This document shows, in pieces, positions 1-6,523 of a stretch of 6,523 nt of DNA. The stretch spans positions 1 through 6,523 of IMG/VR virus record IMGVR_UViG_2663762945_000006. One strand, given 5' to 3'. Source of the stretch: a virus (lineage: Duplodnaviria > Heunggongvirae > Uroviricota > Caudoviricetes). The first letter of the stretch is position 1; each line of letters opens with the position of its first letter. A model generated the notes under the pieces. That model saw only the letters and a program-made list of their open reading frames with translations, had not been told where the DNA came from and searched no databases. Made by a program: the position numbers and the translations under genes.

Positions 1-54
1 ATATAGTTAGAGCAATAACATTACCCAGGCGTTCTGGCGTAGACGATTATTCGA

Positions 55-1642
<1,588 letters not shown>

Positions 1643-1868
1643 TCATTTCCCCTTAACGCCGGGGTAGCGGAACAAAAACCTGCTGCATAGTTATTAAAGT
1701 CGAACCCTGCCATCATGTTCTTACGCCTCGGGCTGGCTACTTAACCCCTGACCACTGCCTGGTAACTCGAAGTATTGCCTGGCGTTCTGTGGGGCGGGGT
1801 GGGTTGATGAAATAATGATGCACTTTTAAAGTTATGATGTCAACACTTATAAAGTTAGCTTTTGATCA

Positions 1869-1896
1869 ATAAAAACCGCCTCGTGTGAAGCGGTTC
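1869..1896 (-). terminator. Rho-independent terminator downstream of the parE-like gene
   Basis: Minus-strand RNA would read CCGCUUC-ACAC-GAGGCGG (7-bp stem with one G-U pair, 4-nt loop) followed by UUUUUAUU. On the plus strand the same hairpin is not followed by a U tract. Lies 16 nt downstream of the parE stop (1912-1914). Confidence 0.6.
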
Positions 1897-1911
1897 TGCG
1901 AAAAAAGAGGA

Positions 1912-2193
1912 TTATCCAGGAAATTGTCGTCTGGAGTGGGTGACACTTACTATTTCAACACTCGAAGCGGCTACACGGTACAGAATGATATAGTTAGGAT
2001 GAGCTACAATCTCACGCAAGCCAAACGCTCTGTCGCTTGATGGGTATAAGTACGGATGTTCAGATAAAGCTAAAACACATGTCTCAATGCGAATCTTTAG
2101 CCTGCGTGCGGCATGGAGATTTTCTTTTGCAATATAGGCTACGATCTGACGTAAATCATCACGTGCAGAAGGTAGCCATAAAATGGGCAGCAT
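1912..2193 (-). CDS. parE2: Type II toxin, ParE/RelE superfamily (93 aa), third gene of a paaR-paaA-parE-type three-component TA operon
   Basis: MLPILWLPSARDDLRQIVAYIAKENLHAARRLKIRIETCVLALSEHPYLYPSSDRAFGLREIVAHPNYIILYRV...VEIVSVTHSRR has the ParE-like pattern (W.P.A..DL..I..YIA..N...A.R......) and the C-terminal (E)I(V/L)(S/R)V.H motif. The ATG overlaps the antitoxin stop (TAATG). SD-like GGGAG about 6 nt upstream. Paralog number (parE1 versus parE2) cannot be decided from sequence alone. Confidence 0.8.
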   Translation of the reverse strand: MLPILWLPSARDDLRQIVAYIAKENLHAARRLKIRIETCVLALSEHPYLYPSSDRAFGLREIVAHPNYIILYRVAASSVEIVSVTHSRRQFPG

Positions 2194-2384
2194 TACACAC
2201 TCCCGCTAGTCGCAGCAATTTGGGCAATGAGATTTTCCATTTCTGCCATTACATCATCATGAGGAATTGCAGGGCGCGGATCTGCAAGATTTGCAGCTAC
2301 TTTTGCACGTAGCCATTCGTTGTAATTATTTTCTTGCTCAACGGTTTCAAACTCAGAAACCATCGGCGAAAGGGCAGTGTTCAT
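2193..2384 (-). CDS. paaA2: Type II antitoxin, PaaA2-like (63 aa), partner of the ParE toxin
   Basis: MNTALSPMVSEFETVEQENNYNEWLRAKVAANLADPRPAIPHDDVMAEMENLIAQIAATSGSV. Length 63 aa and the ...NEWLRAKV... motif match my recollection of the PaaA2 antitoxin of E. coli O157:H7. Start chosen at the internal ATG (2382-2384) because a perfect AGGAGG lies 6 nt upstream; the longer 84-aa ORF (to 2447) has no RBS and overlaps the upstream gene. Confidence 0.75.
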   Translation of the reverse strand: MNTALSPMVSEFETVEQENNYNEWLRAKVAANLADPRPAIPHDDVMAEMENLIAQIAATSGSV

Positions 2385-2413
2385 AACATACCTCCTTTGG
2401 CTTATGATGTAGA

Positions 2414-2821
2414 CTATGCTCGGTGCCCTTTCTGGGCAGCGAGCCATCTTGCAACAGTGCGCTCCATTGATTCTTTTTTGTCTTTCATGTCTTTAAGCAT
2501 TTTTTCTTGATCTTCCTCTGGAAATGCTCCGAATGTTTGAAGCAGTTCCATTTGCCTGGGGCCTATTTTCATAGTATCTGGCACCACAACCTGCTCTTCT
2601 TCGTTTGGCGGTAACATAAACCAATATGGGGGATAACCCGTTACTTCAGAAAGTTTATCAAGATTAGCTGTTGATGGACTTGTGATTCCGTGAACCCACT
2701 TTTGTACCGATTGCTGGGCAACACCAATCCTGCGGGCTAGTTCTGCCTGCTTAAGTCCTGTTTTTTCCAGTACCAATTTTATTCGGTACGTGGTTATTTC
2801 AAGGGTGGTCATTCGCTTCAT
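2414..2821 (-). CDS. paaR2: XRE-family HTH transcriptional regulator (135 aa), PaaR2-like; occupies the CI-repressor position of the prophage switch; no S24 peptidase domain
   Basis: N-terminal HTH: ...LEKTGLKQAELARRIGVAQQSVQKWVHGITSPSTANLDKLSEVTGYP... The C-terminal about 60 aa are acidic/lysine-rich with no Ala-Gly/Ser-Lys peptidase signature. Divergent from the Cro-like gene across a 107-bp promoter region, and immediately upstream of and co-oriented with the antitoxin-toxin pair. Start could be ATG at 2821 (probably leaderless) or the in-frame ATG at 2812. Confidence 0.75.
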   Translation of the reverse strand: MKRMTTLEITTYRIKLVLEKTGLKQAELARRIGVAQQSVQKWVHGITSPSTANLDKLSEVTGYPPYWFMLPPNEEEQVVVPDTMKIGPRQMELLQTFGAFPEEDQEKMLKDMKDKKESMERTVARWLAAQKGHRA

Positions 2822-2928
2822 GCATTCATTTTACATAAAAAAAGTGTAACTAGCACAATCAGCTTAAAGGTGTTGATAAACTAACTTTAAAAGTGTATAA
2901 ATCATGGTGATTCACTGGAGATAACGAT
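2822..2928. promoter_or_regulatory. Divergent promoter/operator region between the paaR2-like repressor and Cro-like ydaS
   Basis: Plus-strand candidate promoter: -35 TTGATA (2873-2878), about 17-bp spacer, TG-extended -10 (TGtATAAAT, 2894-2902), SD GGAG (2917-2920), ATG at 2929. Short symmetric elements: TTACA-N9-TGTAA (2831-2849), ACTTT-a-AAAGT (2884-2894), AATCA-tgg-TGATT (2900-2912). The repressor gene starts at the region edge with no obvious SD, consistent with a leaderless transcript. Confidence 0.5.
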
Positions 2929-3195
2929 ATGCATGAATGTTTAAAAAATAAAATTCACCAAAGAGGGTTATCCCAAGCAGGTATTGCTCGTTTGATTGGA
3001 TTACCGCAACAGGTTGTGTCTCGATGGGCTAATGGTCAGCAGGTCCCTGCATCAAGGGTTCTGCAACTTTGTGAGATTATGGCGTGGGAGGTTACCCCCC
3101 ACGAACTCCGACCTGATATTTATCCTAACCCAACAGACGGCTTGCCTGCTGAGTTTCAGACTAGCACACAGCCAGCGACGGGAGTTGATTCATGA
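2929..3195 (+). CDS. ydaS: Cro-like HTH protein, YdaS family (88 aa)
   Basis: MHECLKNKIHQRGLSQAGIARLIGLPQQVVSRWANGQQVPASRVLQLCEIMAWEVTPHELRPDIYPNP...; HTH plus the ELRPDI motif typical of YdaS/Cro-like prophage proteins. Its stop overlaps the ydaT start (ATGA, 3192-3195). Confidence 0.75.
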   Translation: MHECLKNKIHQRGLSQAGIARLIGLPQQVVSRWANGQQVPASRVLQLCEIMAWEVTPHELRPDIYPNPTDGLPAEFQTSTQPATGVDS

Positions 3196-3617
3196 AAATC
3201 AAGCATGAGCACATCCGCATGGCGATGAATGCCTGGGCATATCCTGACGGTGAGAAGGTGCCAGCTGCTGCTATTGCCAGAGCGTATTTTGAACTGGGGA
3301 TGACATATCCCGAGTTGCACAACGACGACAGGCACAACGCGCTCTATCTCAACACCCAAAAGATTTTCCGTTGGCTGGATAAAGACACTCCTGATGCTGT
3401 TGAGAAAATTCAGGCATTGTTACCGGCGATCGAAAGGGCAATGCCACCTCCGCTGGTAGCCCGAATGCGCAGCCACAGTTCCGCTTATTTTCGGGAGCTG
3501 GTGGAGACGCAGGAACGGCTAGTGAAAGATATCGATGATTTCGTTGCATCAGCGATCGTTCTGTTCGACCAGATGAATCGTGGTGGTCCGGCGGGTAATT
3601 CCGTGGCTGTGCATTGA
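3192..3617 (+). CDS. ydaT: YdaT-family protein (141 aa), proposed CII-like regulator / former 'toxin YdaT'
   Basis: MKIKHEHIRMAMNAWAYPDGEKVPAAAIARAYFELGMTYPELHND...; matches my recollection of Rac-prophage YdaT (about 140 aa, same N-terminus). SD-like GGGAG 7 nt upstream. Translationally coupled to ydaS. Confidence 0.75.
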   Translation: MKIKHEHIRMAMNAWAYPDGEKVPAAAIARAYFELGMTYPELHNDDRHNALYLNTQKIFRWLDKDTPDAVEKIQALLPAIERAMPPPLVARMRSHSSAYFRELVETQERLVKDIDDFVASAIVLFDQMNRGGPAGNSVAVH

Positions 3618-3688
3618 CTGAAAATATTTATACCGGATCGCTTCCGGCAATTCGTGAGTAAAAAGATTCGGTCTCAGAAGAGGTGAGT

Positions 3689-4729
3689 ATGGCTAATGCC
3701 TGGCTCAGATTATGGCATGACATGCCAAATGACCCTAAGTGGCGAACAATTTCCAGGGTGTCAGGACAGCCAATCGCAACAGTGATGGCTGTGTATATCC
3801 ACCTTCTGGTGAGCGCGTCACGAAATGTCACGACATGTCACGGCGTGTCACTACGTGGTCACATTGATGTCACAACGGAAGATTTAGCAAGTGCACTTGA
3901 TGTGACGGAAGAAGTAATTGATTCAATTTTGCAGGCGATGCAGGGGCGGGTGCTTGATGGAGATTTAATCACTGGATGGGAAAAACGCCAGGTAGCGAAA
4001 GAGGATAACGGCAACGTTTCGCAAACCGCGAAATCCCCGGCAGAGCGTAAGAGAGCACAACGCGAGAGGGAAAAATTACGAAAACAGAATGAGGGGTGTC
4101 ACGATGAGTCACGCATATGTCACGACATGTCACTACGAGTCACGACAGATAAAGATACAGATAAAGAATTAAACCCCACACATAACGCGCGCGTGCGCGA
4201 GAGTGCTCCGACCAGTGAATCGAACGGTACGCCGTTGCAGGCAGCGGAACCTGATTACCAGGAAAGCCTGAGCGAACCCATCGGGAAGTTTCCGATGGCC
4301 GATGGCTGGCATCCGTCGCCGGATTTTCGACGGCGGGCTGCACTGTGGGGAGTGGCTCTGCCGGAGCCTGAATTTACACCTGCTGAACTTGCCGCCTTCA
4401 GGGACTACTGGGCAGCTGAGGGGAAAGTTTTTACGCAGGTTCAGTGGGAGCAGAAATTCGCCCGTCACGTAAATCACGTCAGGGCGCAGGTTAAACCAGT
4501 CAGCAAGGGGGTGCGTCATACAGCAGCACCAGGTGGCACCGCATCACGGGCAGTTCGGGAAATTCGGGCAGCACGTGAGCAGTGGGAACGTGAAAACGGA
4601 TTTGTCAGCGACGGAAACGGCGTGGAAGCTGTGGGAGCTCATGGGGGAGGTTTATTCAAACCGCTGGACTCAGAAGAACGGGGCCGCACCTTCGAAGCTC
4701 TGGATTGCCCAGATTGGCGCGATGACTGA
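3689..4729 (+). CDS. Phage replication initiator (lambda O functional analogue) with a DnaT-like C-terminal domain; carries two internal iteron arrays
   Basis: ATG at 3689 with AAGAGG 6 nt upstream (the listed ORF begins at GTG 3683). C-terminal region [62 protein letters not shown] closely parallels the E. coli DnaT C-terminal domain (recalled: [61 protein letters not shown]). The position after the cro/cII-like genes and the internal direct repeats fit an O-like initiator. The last about 65 codons overlap the next gene in another frame, so the true 3' end is uncertain. Confidence 0.7.
3817..3873. repeat. Iteron array 1: six direct copies of GTCAC(G) at 10-11 bp phasing
   Basis: GTCAC begins at 3817, 3827, 3837, 3847, 3858 and 3869 (cgTCACGaaatGTCACGacatGTCACGgcgtGTCACTacgtgGTCACAttgatGTCACA). 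An inverted copy GTGAC lies at 3902-3906. Inside the O-like CDS (codons ~43-62). Confidence 0.75.
4097..4167. repeat. Iteron array 2 (five GTCAC(G) copies at 10-11 bp phasing) plus a tandem 12-bp A-rich duplication; candidate replication origin
   Basis: GTCAC at 4098, 4108, 4119, 4129 and 4139. The 17-mer ATGTCACGACATGTCAC is shared with array 1 (3825-3841 and 4117-4133). Followed immediately by ACAGATAAAGAt ACAGATAAAGAa (4145-4167), an AT-rich stretch, and then a (CG)-rich tract at 4184-4199. Confidence 0.7.
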
Positions 4730-5183
4730 ACAGCAAATCAGGCTGGTCTGCCGTCAGTGCATGGACCGCTGCCGGGCGGGTGAAACGTGGCCCCCGGACC
4801 TGGCTGAGTTTGTTGCGCTGATTTCGGAGAGTGGGGCAAATCCATTTGGTCTTACGGTGGATGCCGTGATGGAAGAGTACCGGCGCTGGCGCAATGAATC
4901 CTGGCGGTACGACGGGAGTGATAAATACCCGTGGCCACAGCCTGTGCTGTACCACATTTGCCTCGAGATGCGCACCAGAGGGATTGAACGTCAGATGACT
5001 GAAAGTGAGCTGAAACGACTTGCAGAACGACTGTTGACCAAATGGGCAAAGAATGTTGGTAACGGCATGAGTGTTCCGCCAGTGCGACGACAACTGGAAG
5101 GGCCAAAACACCCGCCAGGGCCAACGCCAATTGAGTTACTGAAACAGGAATATGAGCGCCGGAAAGCGGCTGGTTTTGTCTGA
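4533..5183 (+). CDS. Lambda P-like replication protein (helicase loader), about 180-216 aa depending on start
   Basis: C-terminal half ...[40 protein letters not shown]... parallels lambda P (recalled: ...AESYPWKSNAHYWLVTNLYQNMRANALTDAELRRKAADEL...), and ...[11 protein letters not shown]...[10 protein letters not shown] parallels lambda ...GITTMEQVNAG...SPGQFVAW. Start is ambiguous: GTG 4533, GTG 4575, GTG 4590 or ATG 4641, none with a strong SD. The frame is open from 4473. An ATG at 4722 overlaps the O-like stop (ATGACTGA) but would remove conserved N-terminal residues. Confidence 0.65.
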
Positions 5184-5216
5184 ATTTGAGAAATGATTTT
5201 GTCGGAGGAAATTTTA

Positions 5217-5930
5217 ATGGAAACCGTTTTTGACGCACTGAAAGCACTGAAAAGAGCCTCTTCACAGGAGGTGTCGGCCCGCCTTGGAATCAGCCGCGAA
5301 GATGCTGTCAACGAGCTGTGGAAGCTGAAACGCCGTGGTGAAGCAGATAACAAGGGGTCGATGTGGTGGCTGACGATTGAGGCAACTGAAATGGTCACAA
5401 AAACCACTGCGGAGATGCTGATTAACTCAATTGAACAGCATGGTCCTCAGTCGGCTGACGAACTGGCGTTAATGTTCGGGATTACCTCCCGCCGGGCGAA
5501 TTCAACGCTGGCAATGGCAATAAGCAAAGGTCGTCTGATTCGAGTAAATCAGAACGGTAAATTTCGTTACTGCCTGTCGGGCGATAATTTACCAGCAGAG
5601 CCGAAAGCTGCATCGGTAACGGAAACTGCTGGTAAAGCCTTTCCTCAGACAGCAGGTGTTGCGTTACCAGTCCGGGAAGCGGAAACACAGGAAGAAATTA
5701 AAACTGAAAGTGTGGCGGTCACAGTGCAGTCACAGCCGTCGTTCACCAGAAAGCATCCGGATAGTCTGATTTTACCATCGCTGCATGTGGCTAACCGCGA
5801 ACTGCGCCGGGCAAAAGGTCAGGTTCAGAAGTGGGAGCGAGTCTGTGCTGCGCTGCGTGAGCTGAACAAGCACCAGGATATTGTTCGACAGATTGTCGAT
5901 TCCTCCAGTCGTATTGTGTCGGAAAAGTGA
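5217..5930 (+). CDS. Hypothetical prophage protein (237 aa) with two winged-helix-like segments
   Basis: ATG at 5217 preceded by GGAGG (5204-5208, 8-nt spacer); the listed ORF starts at an upstream ATG (5193) that lacks an RBS. Segments ...[28 protein letters not shown]... and ...[35 protein letters not shown]... look like winged-helix DNA-binding motifs. No family recognised from memory. Confidence 0.6.
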
Positions 5931-5945
5931 TTGCCGGAGGTACTT

Positions 5946-6338
5946 ATGGCAAGAGTATTTACACAGGAAGAGCGGGAAGAAGTGAAGGCGCGCATTGTGG
6001 AATTCGTGCGCCTGAGCGGACGAGAAACTTTTCGACAACTGGCAGATAAAACGGGTGTCAGTAAGACCGCTATTCGTCGTTTATCTGGTGCGCTTGCGGC
6101 CAGTGGTGATGTCTGGCTCTCTGATTGCGGGGTATTTCCATCAGAGCAGGCGTATCGCGTATGGCGTAAGACACCGGAGAAGGCTGCTGACCCGACACTG
6201 ATTCGAAAGTTACCTGACGGAGAAATACGTCGTTACAACAGATGGCAGAACATAATTTGTCGTGAGTGCCGCCAGAGCGAGGTTATGCAGCGTGTGCTGG
6301 CGTTCTATCGGGGAAACTTTCAGGAGGTGATGGAGTGA
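5946..6338 (+). CDS. Hypothetical prophage protein (130 aa) with an N-terminal HTH-like segment
   Basis: ATG at 5946 with GGAGG (5936-5940) 5 nt upstream; the listed ORF starts at 5931. Segment ...GRETFRQLADKTGVSKTAIRRLSGALAASGDV... is HTH-like. Stop TGA at 6336-6338 overlaps the next start (GTGA). Confidence 0.55.
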   Translation: MARVFTQEEREEVKARIVEFVRLSGRETFRQLADKTGVSKTAIRRLSGALAASGDVWLSDCGVFPSEQAYRVWRKTPEKAADPTLIRKLPDGEIRRYNRWQNIICRECRQSEVMQRVLAFYRGNFQEVME

Positions 6339-6523
6339 GGGTGAGAGTTTATATTGCCGGTCCAATGACGGGATATGAAAATTTCAACCGTGAGGCGTTT
6401 CACAAGGCGGAAGAGGAACTGAAACGGGAAGGGCATACCGTCTTAAACCCGGCAGTACTTCCGGACGGGCTGACACAGCCGCACTACATGGATATTTGCA
6501 TGGCAATGATTCGTTGTGTGGAT
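6335..6523 (+). CDS. DUF4406-family protein (nucleoside 2-deoxyribosyltransferase-like fold), 5' part only; runs off the window end
   Basis: Translation (V)RVRVYIAGPMTGYENFNREAFHKAEEELKREGHTVLNPAVLPDGLTQPHYMDICMAMIRCVD has the characteristic (K/R)(I/V)YIAGPMTG...N...F N-terminus of DUF4406 proteins. GTG start at 6335 with AGGAGG at 6322-6327 (7-nt spacer); alternative GTG at 6341. Not in the ORF track because no stop falls within the window. Confidence 0.7.
   Translation, partial: MRVRVYIAGPMTGYENFNREAFHKAEEELKREGHTVLNPAVLPDGLTQPHYMDICMAMIRCVD

Follow-up and report, generated by a model that had tools for sequence, protein, structure and literature searches.

The window, a stretch of 6,523 nucleotides comprising positions 1 to 6,523 of the IMG/VR virus record IMGVR_UViG_2663762945_000006, carries two consecutive open reading frames on the plus strand, ORF A (5217–5930; 237 aa) and ORF B (5946–6338; 130 aa), which are listed together with their domains in Table 1. 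Both are annotated in RefSeq with identical starts—as WP_000450633.1 for ORF A and WP_001792328.1 for ORF B—and the DNA of the RefSeq-annotated genome is 100% identical to the window over 5193–6338. Over 1603–6523, the window is 99.8% identical to a prophage of E. coli 23CRST047, which is lambdoid and Rac-like and integrated beside potC/potD. The minus strand bears a ParE/RelB toxin–antitoxin pair and a CI-like repressor. The plus strand features, in this order: a Cro/YdaS-like gene; a YdaT/CII-like gene; an O-like initiator gene with a DnaT domain; a lambda-P-like gene; ORF A; ORF B; a DUF4406 gene; and then ead/Ea22-like genes. The replication genes are immediately followed by the two ORFs, which occupy the ren/nin-type accessory position that an earlier note, made from the letters of this DNA, had assigned to them. 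The iteron-rich origin that it had placed upstream is present as well: 10-nt repeats form two clusters within the O-like gene, at 3815–3864 and 4107–4156, which is 1–2 kb upstream of the ORFs.

Table 1. Coordinates of ORF A, ORF B, and adjoining features in the window
Feature	Position	Strand	Description
GGAGG ribosome-binding site, ORF A	5204..5208	+	8 nt ahead of ATG 5217; direct sequence reading
ORF A	5217..5930	+	237 aa, full-length YdaW-type; PF07789 DUF1627, PHROG 630
ORF A winged helix 1	5217..5372	+	aa 1–52; AlphaFold2 pLDDT 93–97
ORF A winged helix 2	5400..5576	+	aa 62–120; AlphaFold2 pLDDT 92–97
ORF A linker	5577..5771	+	aa 121–185; disordered, variable length; pLDDT 47–67
ORF A C-terminal module	5772..5927	+	aa 186–237; basic amphipathic helix
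GGAGG ribosome-binding site, ORF B	5936..5940	+	5 nt ahead of ATG 5946; direct sequence reading
ORF B	5946..6338	+	130 aa, DUF977/LygF; long-form lambda Ren homologue, PHROG 142
ORF B winged helix	5964..6170	+	aa 7–75; AlphaFold2 pLDDT >90
ORF B C-terminal module	6186..6311	+	aa 81–122, ...LPDGEIRRY...NIICRECRQSEVMQRVLAFY; pLDDT 52–66
DUF4406 gene, start	6335..6523	+	PF14359 E 4.4e-23; RefSeq annotation

ORF A and ORF B share their strand with the homologues of cro, cII, O, and P, and the junctions are short or overlapping. The stop codon of ORF B overlaps the GTG start codon of the DUF4406 gene (GTGA), which points to co-translation in one operon. The scan of 4500–6523 gave no promoter-like site, where chance alone would predict 1.3; its terminator-like sites are at chance level. 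Given the common strand, the tight junctions, and the lack of a promoter-like site of their own, both ORFs are part of the repressor-controlled rightward early operon (pR-type); they belong to the delayed-early genes of an E. coli prophage that is Rac/lambda-like. Their products are presumably made in lytic development and absent in the lysogen. A hidden RNA or antisense feature was also considered for this region and discarded, since the Rfam scan of the window gave no match, no promoter-like site is found, and terminators remain at chance level. No rexAB is annotated within the 25-kb prophage stretch that was examined.

Both ORFs are real genes, as judged by their ribosome-binding sites, their RefSeq coding sequences, the start residues that they have in common with their homologues (METV... 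in ORF A and MA(K/R)VFT... in ORF B), and purifying selection. The dN/dS ratio is 0.16–0.20 for ORF A and 0.16–0.22 across both genes, measured against alleles with dS of 0.15–0.34. Thousands of homologues exist for each of the two. The coding reality presumed in the earlier note thus stands, down to the exact coordinates, and the lack of conservation by which it would have recognized non-coding ORFs is not seen, either in the selection data or in the Pfam matches given below.

ORF A is a full-length protein of the YdaW/DUF1627 family. The whole PF07789 model (positions 1–155 of 155) aligns with aa 72–226 at 277.8 bits and E 2.7e-83, the gathering threshold of this family being 28.1 bits, and PHROG 630 matches over aa 1–233 at E 1.1e-112. 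Representatives of the YdaW family down to approximately 22% identity align with ORF A from the first to the near-last residue. DUF1627 is a small family, confined essentially to enterobacteria: 146 representative clusters were retrieved at E ≤0.001 among 1.84 billion proteins, and species-representative genomes contributed six loci, from Escherichia, Citrobacter, Salmonella, and one proteobacterial MAG, so that the taxonomic breadth rests mainly on the representative-cluster search.

The AlphaFold2 model of ORF A, calculated from a 40-sequence alignment (A3; identities of 18–76%), has a mean pLDDT of 82 and features the full YdaW-type architecture: two winged helices, a linker, and a C-terminal helix. 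It upholds in every part the anatomy that had been read from the 237-aa translation, namely two helix-turn-helix-like segments, a compositionally biased linker, and a charged C-terminal helix. Conservation is strongest in winged helix 1, whose third helix is net acidic family-wide, as judged by column entropy and charge in the 40 sequences. In winged helix 2, at which the Pfam DUF1627 model begins, the third helix and the wing are net basic, which makes this domain the more plausible nucleic-acid-binding surface of ORF A. The linker is rich in Ala, Glu, Thr, Pro, and Val; in the same alignment, column entropy peaks here and indels are frequent. The C-terminal module is modeled as two helices, aa 189–218 and aa 220–236, with pLDDT values of 88–96. 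It follows one heptad register with hydrophobic residues at 10 of the 14 a/d positions, and the modeled helix is probably a coiled coil for oligomerization. Modules of this type also occur outside the YdaW architecture: three small stand-alone proteins (P0252, P0312, and P0369) consist of the C-terminal module only, and in a further protein, P0262, the DUF1627 C-terminal module is fused to DUF1376, a YdaU-type initiator domain.

Intact phages of the Rac type encode YdaW proteins that are 65–75% identical to ORF A, in the gene order ydaU/V–ydaW–lygF. The YdaW of the K-12 reference is a truncated form of 186 aa with 57% identity to ORF A over aa 1–135; both winged helices are kept in it, whereas the C-terminal helix is missing. 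The replication genes upstream differ too, being a DnaT-type O and a P-like gene here and YdaU and YdaV in the Rac prophage of K-12.

The search of solved structures by sequence gave nothing significant for ORF A and ORF B, with best E values of 0.53 and 0.051. Foldseek searches with the predicted structures, which had been suggested earlier as a check, returned only winged-helix matches of a generic or tandem kind. For ORF A, the PDB matches are weak tandem winged helices from DIP2311, ScpB, SelB, and ESCRT-II with TM scores ≤0.35. The C-terminal domains of SelB, ScpB, and the ESCRT-II subunits superimpose weakly on both winged helices (Foldseek E 9e-5 to 1e-3) at an identity of 10–20%; a relationship at the level of sequence is absent, and these scaffolds come without the linker and the C-terminal helix; the likeness is a resemblance in fold only and not a family membership. 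The model of ORF B finds generic winged helices only in the PDB and among viral structures (BFVD), and lambda Ren is not recovered by structure. A paralogy of ORF A and ORF B was considered as well, because the PHROG of ORF B, PHROG 142, matches aa 58–118 of ORF A at E 3.4e-6. It was rejected: the profile–profile comparison of the two, with a probability of 45.7% over 46 columns, corresponds to general winged-helix similarity.

ORF B belongs to the DUF977/LygF family and is homologous to lambda Ren, which is shorter. Residues 1–126 cover the entire PF06163 model (1–134 of 134) at 141.6 bits and E 2.1e-41, the gathering threshold being 22.1 bits. The relation to Ren emerges from several comparisons. 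PHROG 142, named "Ren-like exclusion protein," matches ORF B at E 7.5e-42 (143 bits) and lambda Ren at E 1.6e-41 (142 bits); BLASTP aligns the two proteins directly with 28% identity over 90 aa at E 5e-8; and hhalign of a 22-sequence DUF977 profile with Ren residues 7–93 yields a probability of 94.6%. In addition, a tblastn search across the entire phage collection picks up, at E 4e-6, the protein annotated as Ren in PhiR30_1, whose gene comes right behind P. The C-terminal signature N-[IL]-[IV]-x-x-E-C-R-Q-S-x-x-M-x-R-V-L-A-x-Y is invariant in a four-way alignment of ORF B, the LygF of Rac-SA53, lambda Ren, and PhiR30_1 Ren. Taken together, these matches identify ORF B as a long-form Ren. Lambda Ren itself has no match to Pfam DUF977 at E ≤0.1, which is probably why the link is absent from the Pfam and RefSeq names. 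The earlier note had been able to assign neither protein to a family; both have one, and the homology to Ren that it had listed among its refuting outcomes is found for the 130-aa protein. Ren being a named but poorly characterized protein, this homology does away with "unassignable" and leaves "function unknown" in place.

In lambda, Ren has 96 aa and is likewise encoded after the replication genes of the pR operon. It is the first gene to follow them, whereas ORF A stands between the P-like gene and ORF B at the present locus. Lambda Ren and ORF B have in common a winged helix and the C-terminal ECRQS..M.RVLA.Y. ORF B exceeds lambda Ren by 34 aa, with an extra N-terminal helix (aa 4–13) and insertions after the wing at aa 61–70 and about aa 75–85. 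DUF977/LygF proteins are known from Rac-SA53, Stx phages, and the Sdf region of Salmonella Enteritidis. Those of phages are 55–62% identical to ORF B, which represents the short 130-aa variant; forms of 140 aa add a basic insert of approximately 10 residues (SRAK.KK...). LygF only denotes a locus and says nothing about function. A tail reading ...AFYRGNFQ is common to ORF B and PhiR30_1 Ren.

The single helix-turn-helix-like segment described for the 130-aa protein corresponds to the confidently modeled winged helix. Its third ("recognition") helix, aa 40–53, is the most variable segment of the protein, with an entropy of 1.58. The C-terminal module is almost invariant—it has the lowest entropy of the protein, 0.35, and the invariant columns cluster there—and lies in the last approximately 50 residues, which are poorly modeled by AlphaFold2 (pLDDT 52–66). 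The conservation of ORF B is hence inverted compared with a classical repressor, featuring a variable recognition helix and a near-invariant C-terminus. The CxxC motif (CRECRQ) noted before does sit inside this module, but it is no conserved site: Its second Cys is a Ser in two relatives (P0139 and P0213), and its first is a Phe in lambda Ren. A metal site was therefore rejected, the motif offering just two Cys residues that are not conserved.

This pattern bears on whether the two proteins are sequence-specific transcription factors acting on phage or host promoters, a reading that is unlikely on the evidence at hand. It draws on the high confidence with which the winged helices are modeled, on the basic character of both proteins (pI 9.4 for ORF A and 9.6 for ORF B), on weak Pfam and NCBIfam matches of the two ORFs to HTH domains of the IclR, AsnC, MarR, and TrpR type, and on the listing of K-12 YdaW among predicted transcription factors. 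The helix that should read the promoter is, however, the least conserved part of ORF B, and a C-terminus other than an HTH is the most conserved one; winged helix 1 of ORF A has a net acidic third helix; and the best, though weak, structural matches of ORF A—ScpB, SelB, and ESCRT-II—bind proteins or RNA. Repeat and promoter scans of 3600–6523 moreover gave no operator-like repeats near the genes.

The category name of PHROG 142, "exclusion protein," and the frequency of defense genes in prophage accessory regions would suit a different role, namely prophage defense or superinfection exclusion that shields the lysogen from other phages, as had been raised in the earlier note. The PHROG is named after Ren, a protein that counters exclusion and does not cause it. 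Mutants of lambda ren are reportedly sensitive to Rex exclusion, an observation said to go back to Toothman and Herskowitz in 1980. Neither ORF has its own promoter-like site, and the early operon that contains them is under repressor control. The PADLOC models, which cover defense and not anti-defense systems, gave no match above noise: the best one for ORF A is marginal and partial (SWIM_XIII, E 6.8e-5, aa 58–167), and those for ORF B, at E ≥0.014, are not convincing. A defense function in the lysogen is hence highly improbable.

The genomic distribution of the two genes shows how closely they are tied to each other and to their neighbors. Of the 80 IMG/VR loci that come closest to ORF B, upstream sequence is long enough to judge in 70; a DUF1627 gene lies directly upstream at a fixed spacing in 57 of these and not in the other 13. 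In the phage collection, 24 records carry DUF1627, 25 carry DUF977, and 12 carry both. The PPompW phages examined carry DUF1627 and show no match to DUF977; in HannyBb and mEp460, the Ren-like gene directly follows the O-like gene, and there is no DUF1627. Homologues of ORF B are accordingly met in three positions: after P (lambda and PhiR30_1), after the O-like gene (HannyBb and mEp460), and after ydaW (Rac-type phages). The pairing also follows the type of recognition helix. Loci with GVSKTAIRRLSGAL, the type of ORF B in this window, have DUF1627 upstream in every judgeable case, and loci of the GAGWHSVRRCLVDV type lack it in 9 of 10. A single ORF B allele is combined with three replication modules—DnaT-type O with a P-like protein, YdaU with YdaV, and a lambda-O-like protein with YdaV—and one P-like allele accompanies ORF A alleles of 58–100% identity. 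From the pairing counts and the mixing of modules, ORF A and ORF B are frequent neighbors that are nevertheless separable and tied to no one replication machinery. A co-variation of the two genes with the replication module, which had been considered as a candidate, was discarded on the same module and allele data.

Replication itself offers a further explanation. ORF A and ORF B might be accessory factors: By binding to the origin, to the O-like initiator, or to the helicase-loading complex, they would adjust either initiation or the change of replication mode. Replication complexes being what Rex senses, the Rex phenotype of Ren would then be a by-product. The genes are always found immediately downstream of replication genes, here with an iteron-bearing origin 1–2 kb upstream; two-hybrid assays show interactions of Rex proteins with both lambda O and Ren, in a study whose authors regard ren as "likely involved in DNA replication"; and P0262 joins DUF1376 to the DUF1627 C-terminal module. 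This fusion may, however, be a deletion artifact of a decaying prophage, and the module mixing described above argues against a dedicated replication role for either ORF: the same ORF B allele serves alongside three unrelated module types, and a single P-like allele accompanies widely diverged ORF A alleles. One or both genes are, in addition, absent from many lambdoid phages, and lambda ren is dispensable for plaque formation. A replication accessory function is thus rather improbable, though it ranks second, after the preferred reading given below and ahead of the transcription-factor one. The constant site beside the replication genes, taken by itself, suits a replication-linked role equally well.

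Experimental observations on the two families are scarce, and a literature search found no functional study of DUF1627, DUF977, or LygF. K-12 YdaW is one of several prophage genes that block the toxin RcaT of retron-Sen2 upon over-expression, a result that was confirmed on re-test. The protein in this screen was the truncated K-12 form, comprising only both winged helices, and its effect could be indirect, e.g., through lower toxin expression. The guess in the earlier note that the two proteins are anti-defense factors fits these few experiments, i.e., lambda ren against Rex and truncated K-12 YdaW against RcaT.

The reading tentatively preferred here is that ORF A and ORF B are lytic-phase accessory factors with an anti-exclusion or anti-toxin role. 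It is favored by the expression from the early operon, the independence from any one replication module, the non-essentiality, and the Rex and RcaT phenotypes. Both proteins would be produced solely in lytic development, would not be required for replication itself, and would shield early phage development from abortive-infection or toxin systems of the host or of prophages. ORF B, like Ren, would stop an exclusion system from triggering or from acting. Its invariant C-terminal module may contact a conserved partner, and its variable winged helix may provide a second, allele-specific contact. ORF A could be an oligomeric adaptor that self-associates through the C-terminal helix, with the basic winged helix 2 binding nucleic acid and the acidic winged helix 1 binding protein. 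The two would often travel together, each being able to act alone.

Rex cannot be the sole target of such a function. Of 5426 complete E. coli genomes, 4201 have a DUF977 gene detectable by blastn, at a median of two places per positive genome, and only 99 have a detectable lambda-type rexAB; resistance to Rex alone cannot explain how common the Ren-like gene is. Either the target class of the DUF977/Ren-like proteins is broader than Rex, or their primary role lies elsewhere. A wider form of the anti-exclusion reading, in which DUF977/Ren-like proteins, often together with DUF1627/YdaW, serve the temperate phages of enterobacteria as a general device against abortive infection, is doubtful as it stands. 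The early replication complex, which is what systems like Rex or retrons sense, would be hidden or modified by this device; the C-terminal module would target a conserved component of the host or its defense, and an arms race would drive the evolution of the variable winged helix. If true, such a device would explain why the gene is found in approximately 77% of complete E. coli genomes and lambda-type rexAB in <2%.

RefSeq already has annotations for the exact proteins of ORF A and ORF B, and the gene arrangement is typical of many Rac-type prophages; the novelty of this window itself is therefore low. DUF1627 and DUF977 are, at the same time, among the commonest unexplained genes of E. coli prophages, and the genetic phenotype of lambda ren dates back more than 40 years, with its mechanism still missing. 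The identification of DUF977/LygF as a long-form Ren joins a large family of this kind to a testable phenotype. The same link shows which parts of the protein to mutate: the invariant C-terminal module and, set against it, the variable winged helix.

ORF B, the DUF977 (PF06163) homologue of lambda Ren, and the upstream ORF A of the DUF1627 (PF07789) family differ in how much their alleles vary. Among the 80 IMG/VR loci closest to ORF B (L009–L088), the ORF B allele is almost constant at 92 to 100% identity, whereas identity for the neighboring ORF A allele spans 58 to 88%, with the spacing to ORF B unchanged. In addition, DNA similarity to Rac-type phages begins only at position 309 of the query spanning both ORFs (window 5193–6338), that is, at approximately window 5501, within ORF A. 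The constancy of ORF B against the variability of ORF A, together with this onset of similarity, suggests a recombination breakpoint within ORF A that would separate the first winged helix from the rest of the protein.

Two proteins combine DUF1627 sequence with another domain: P0262 (313 aa) joins a YdaU-type initiator domain, DUF1376, to the C-terminal module of DUF1627, and P0121 (204 aa) carries DUF1627 and DUF977 in a single protein. Both may be deletion or frameshift products from decaying prophages; alternatively, they may be real fusions—hinting at a functional link.

The Ren-like DUF977 gene occurs in 4201 of the 5426 complete Escherichia coli genomes, with up to seven copies per genome. 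Lambda-type rexAB was found in 99 of the 5426, laboratory strains included, every one at an identity of at least 99%. In lambda, rexAB occupies the slot beside the repressor gene; the window carries a toxin–antitoxin pair there instead (Table).

Features of the window and their positions
Feature	Position	Strand	Remarks
Third piece of the left end	1–201		YhcH-like ORF on minus strand
pstA/pstC internal fragment	202–1619		100% identity to many E. coli genomes
Prophage DNA	1603–6523		Adjoins potC/potD in other genomes
ParE/RelE-family toxin and RelB-family antitoxin	1912–2447	minus	Directly adjoin the CI-like repressor gene
Iteron cluster 1	3815–3864		10-nt units; inside DnaT-domain O-like gene
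Iteron cluster 2	4107–4156		10-nt units; inside DnaT-domain O-like gene
P-like gene, RefSeq form	4722–5183		153 aa; RefSeq start maps to 4722

The two iteron clusters share the consensus (A/G)TGTCAC(G/T)(A/G)C at a spacing of 10 nt and likely constitute the replication origin; the lambda origin has the same placement within the initiator gene. The P-like gene begins with a GTG at window 4533 in the mechanical ORF list, yielding 216 aa. With the RefSeq start, it shares its first 8 nt with the end of the O-like gene, and this 153-aa form fits translational coupling.

The left end of the window (1–1619) is a patchwork. The pstA/pstC and prophage pieces overlap by 17 nt (1603–1619), and the left end has the appearance of a chimeric contig or an assembly misjoin, not of a site of natural insertion.
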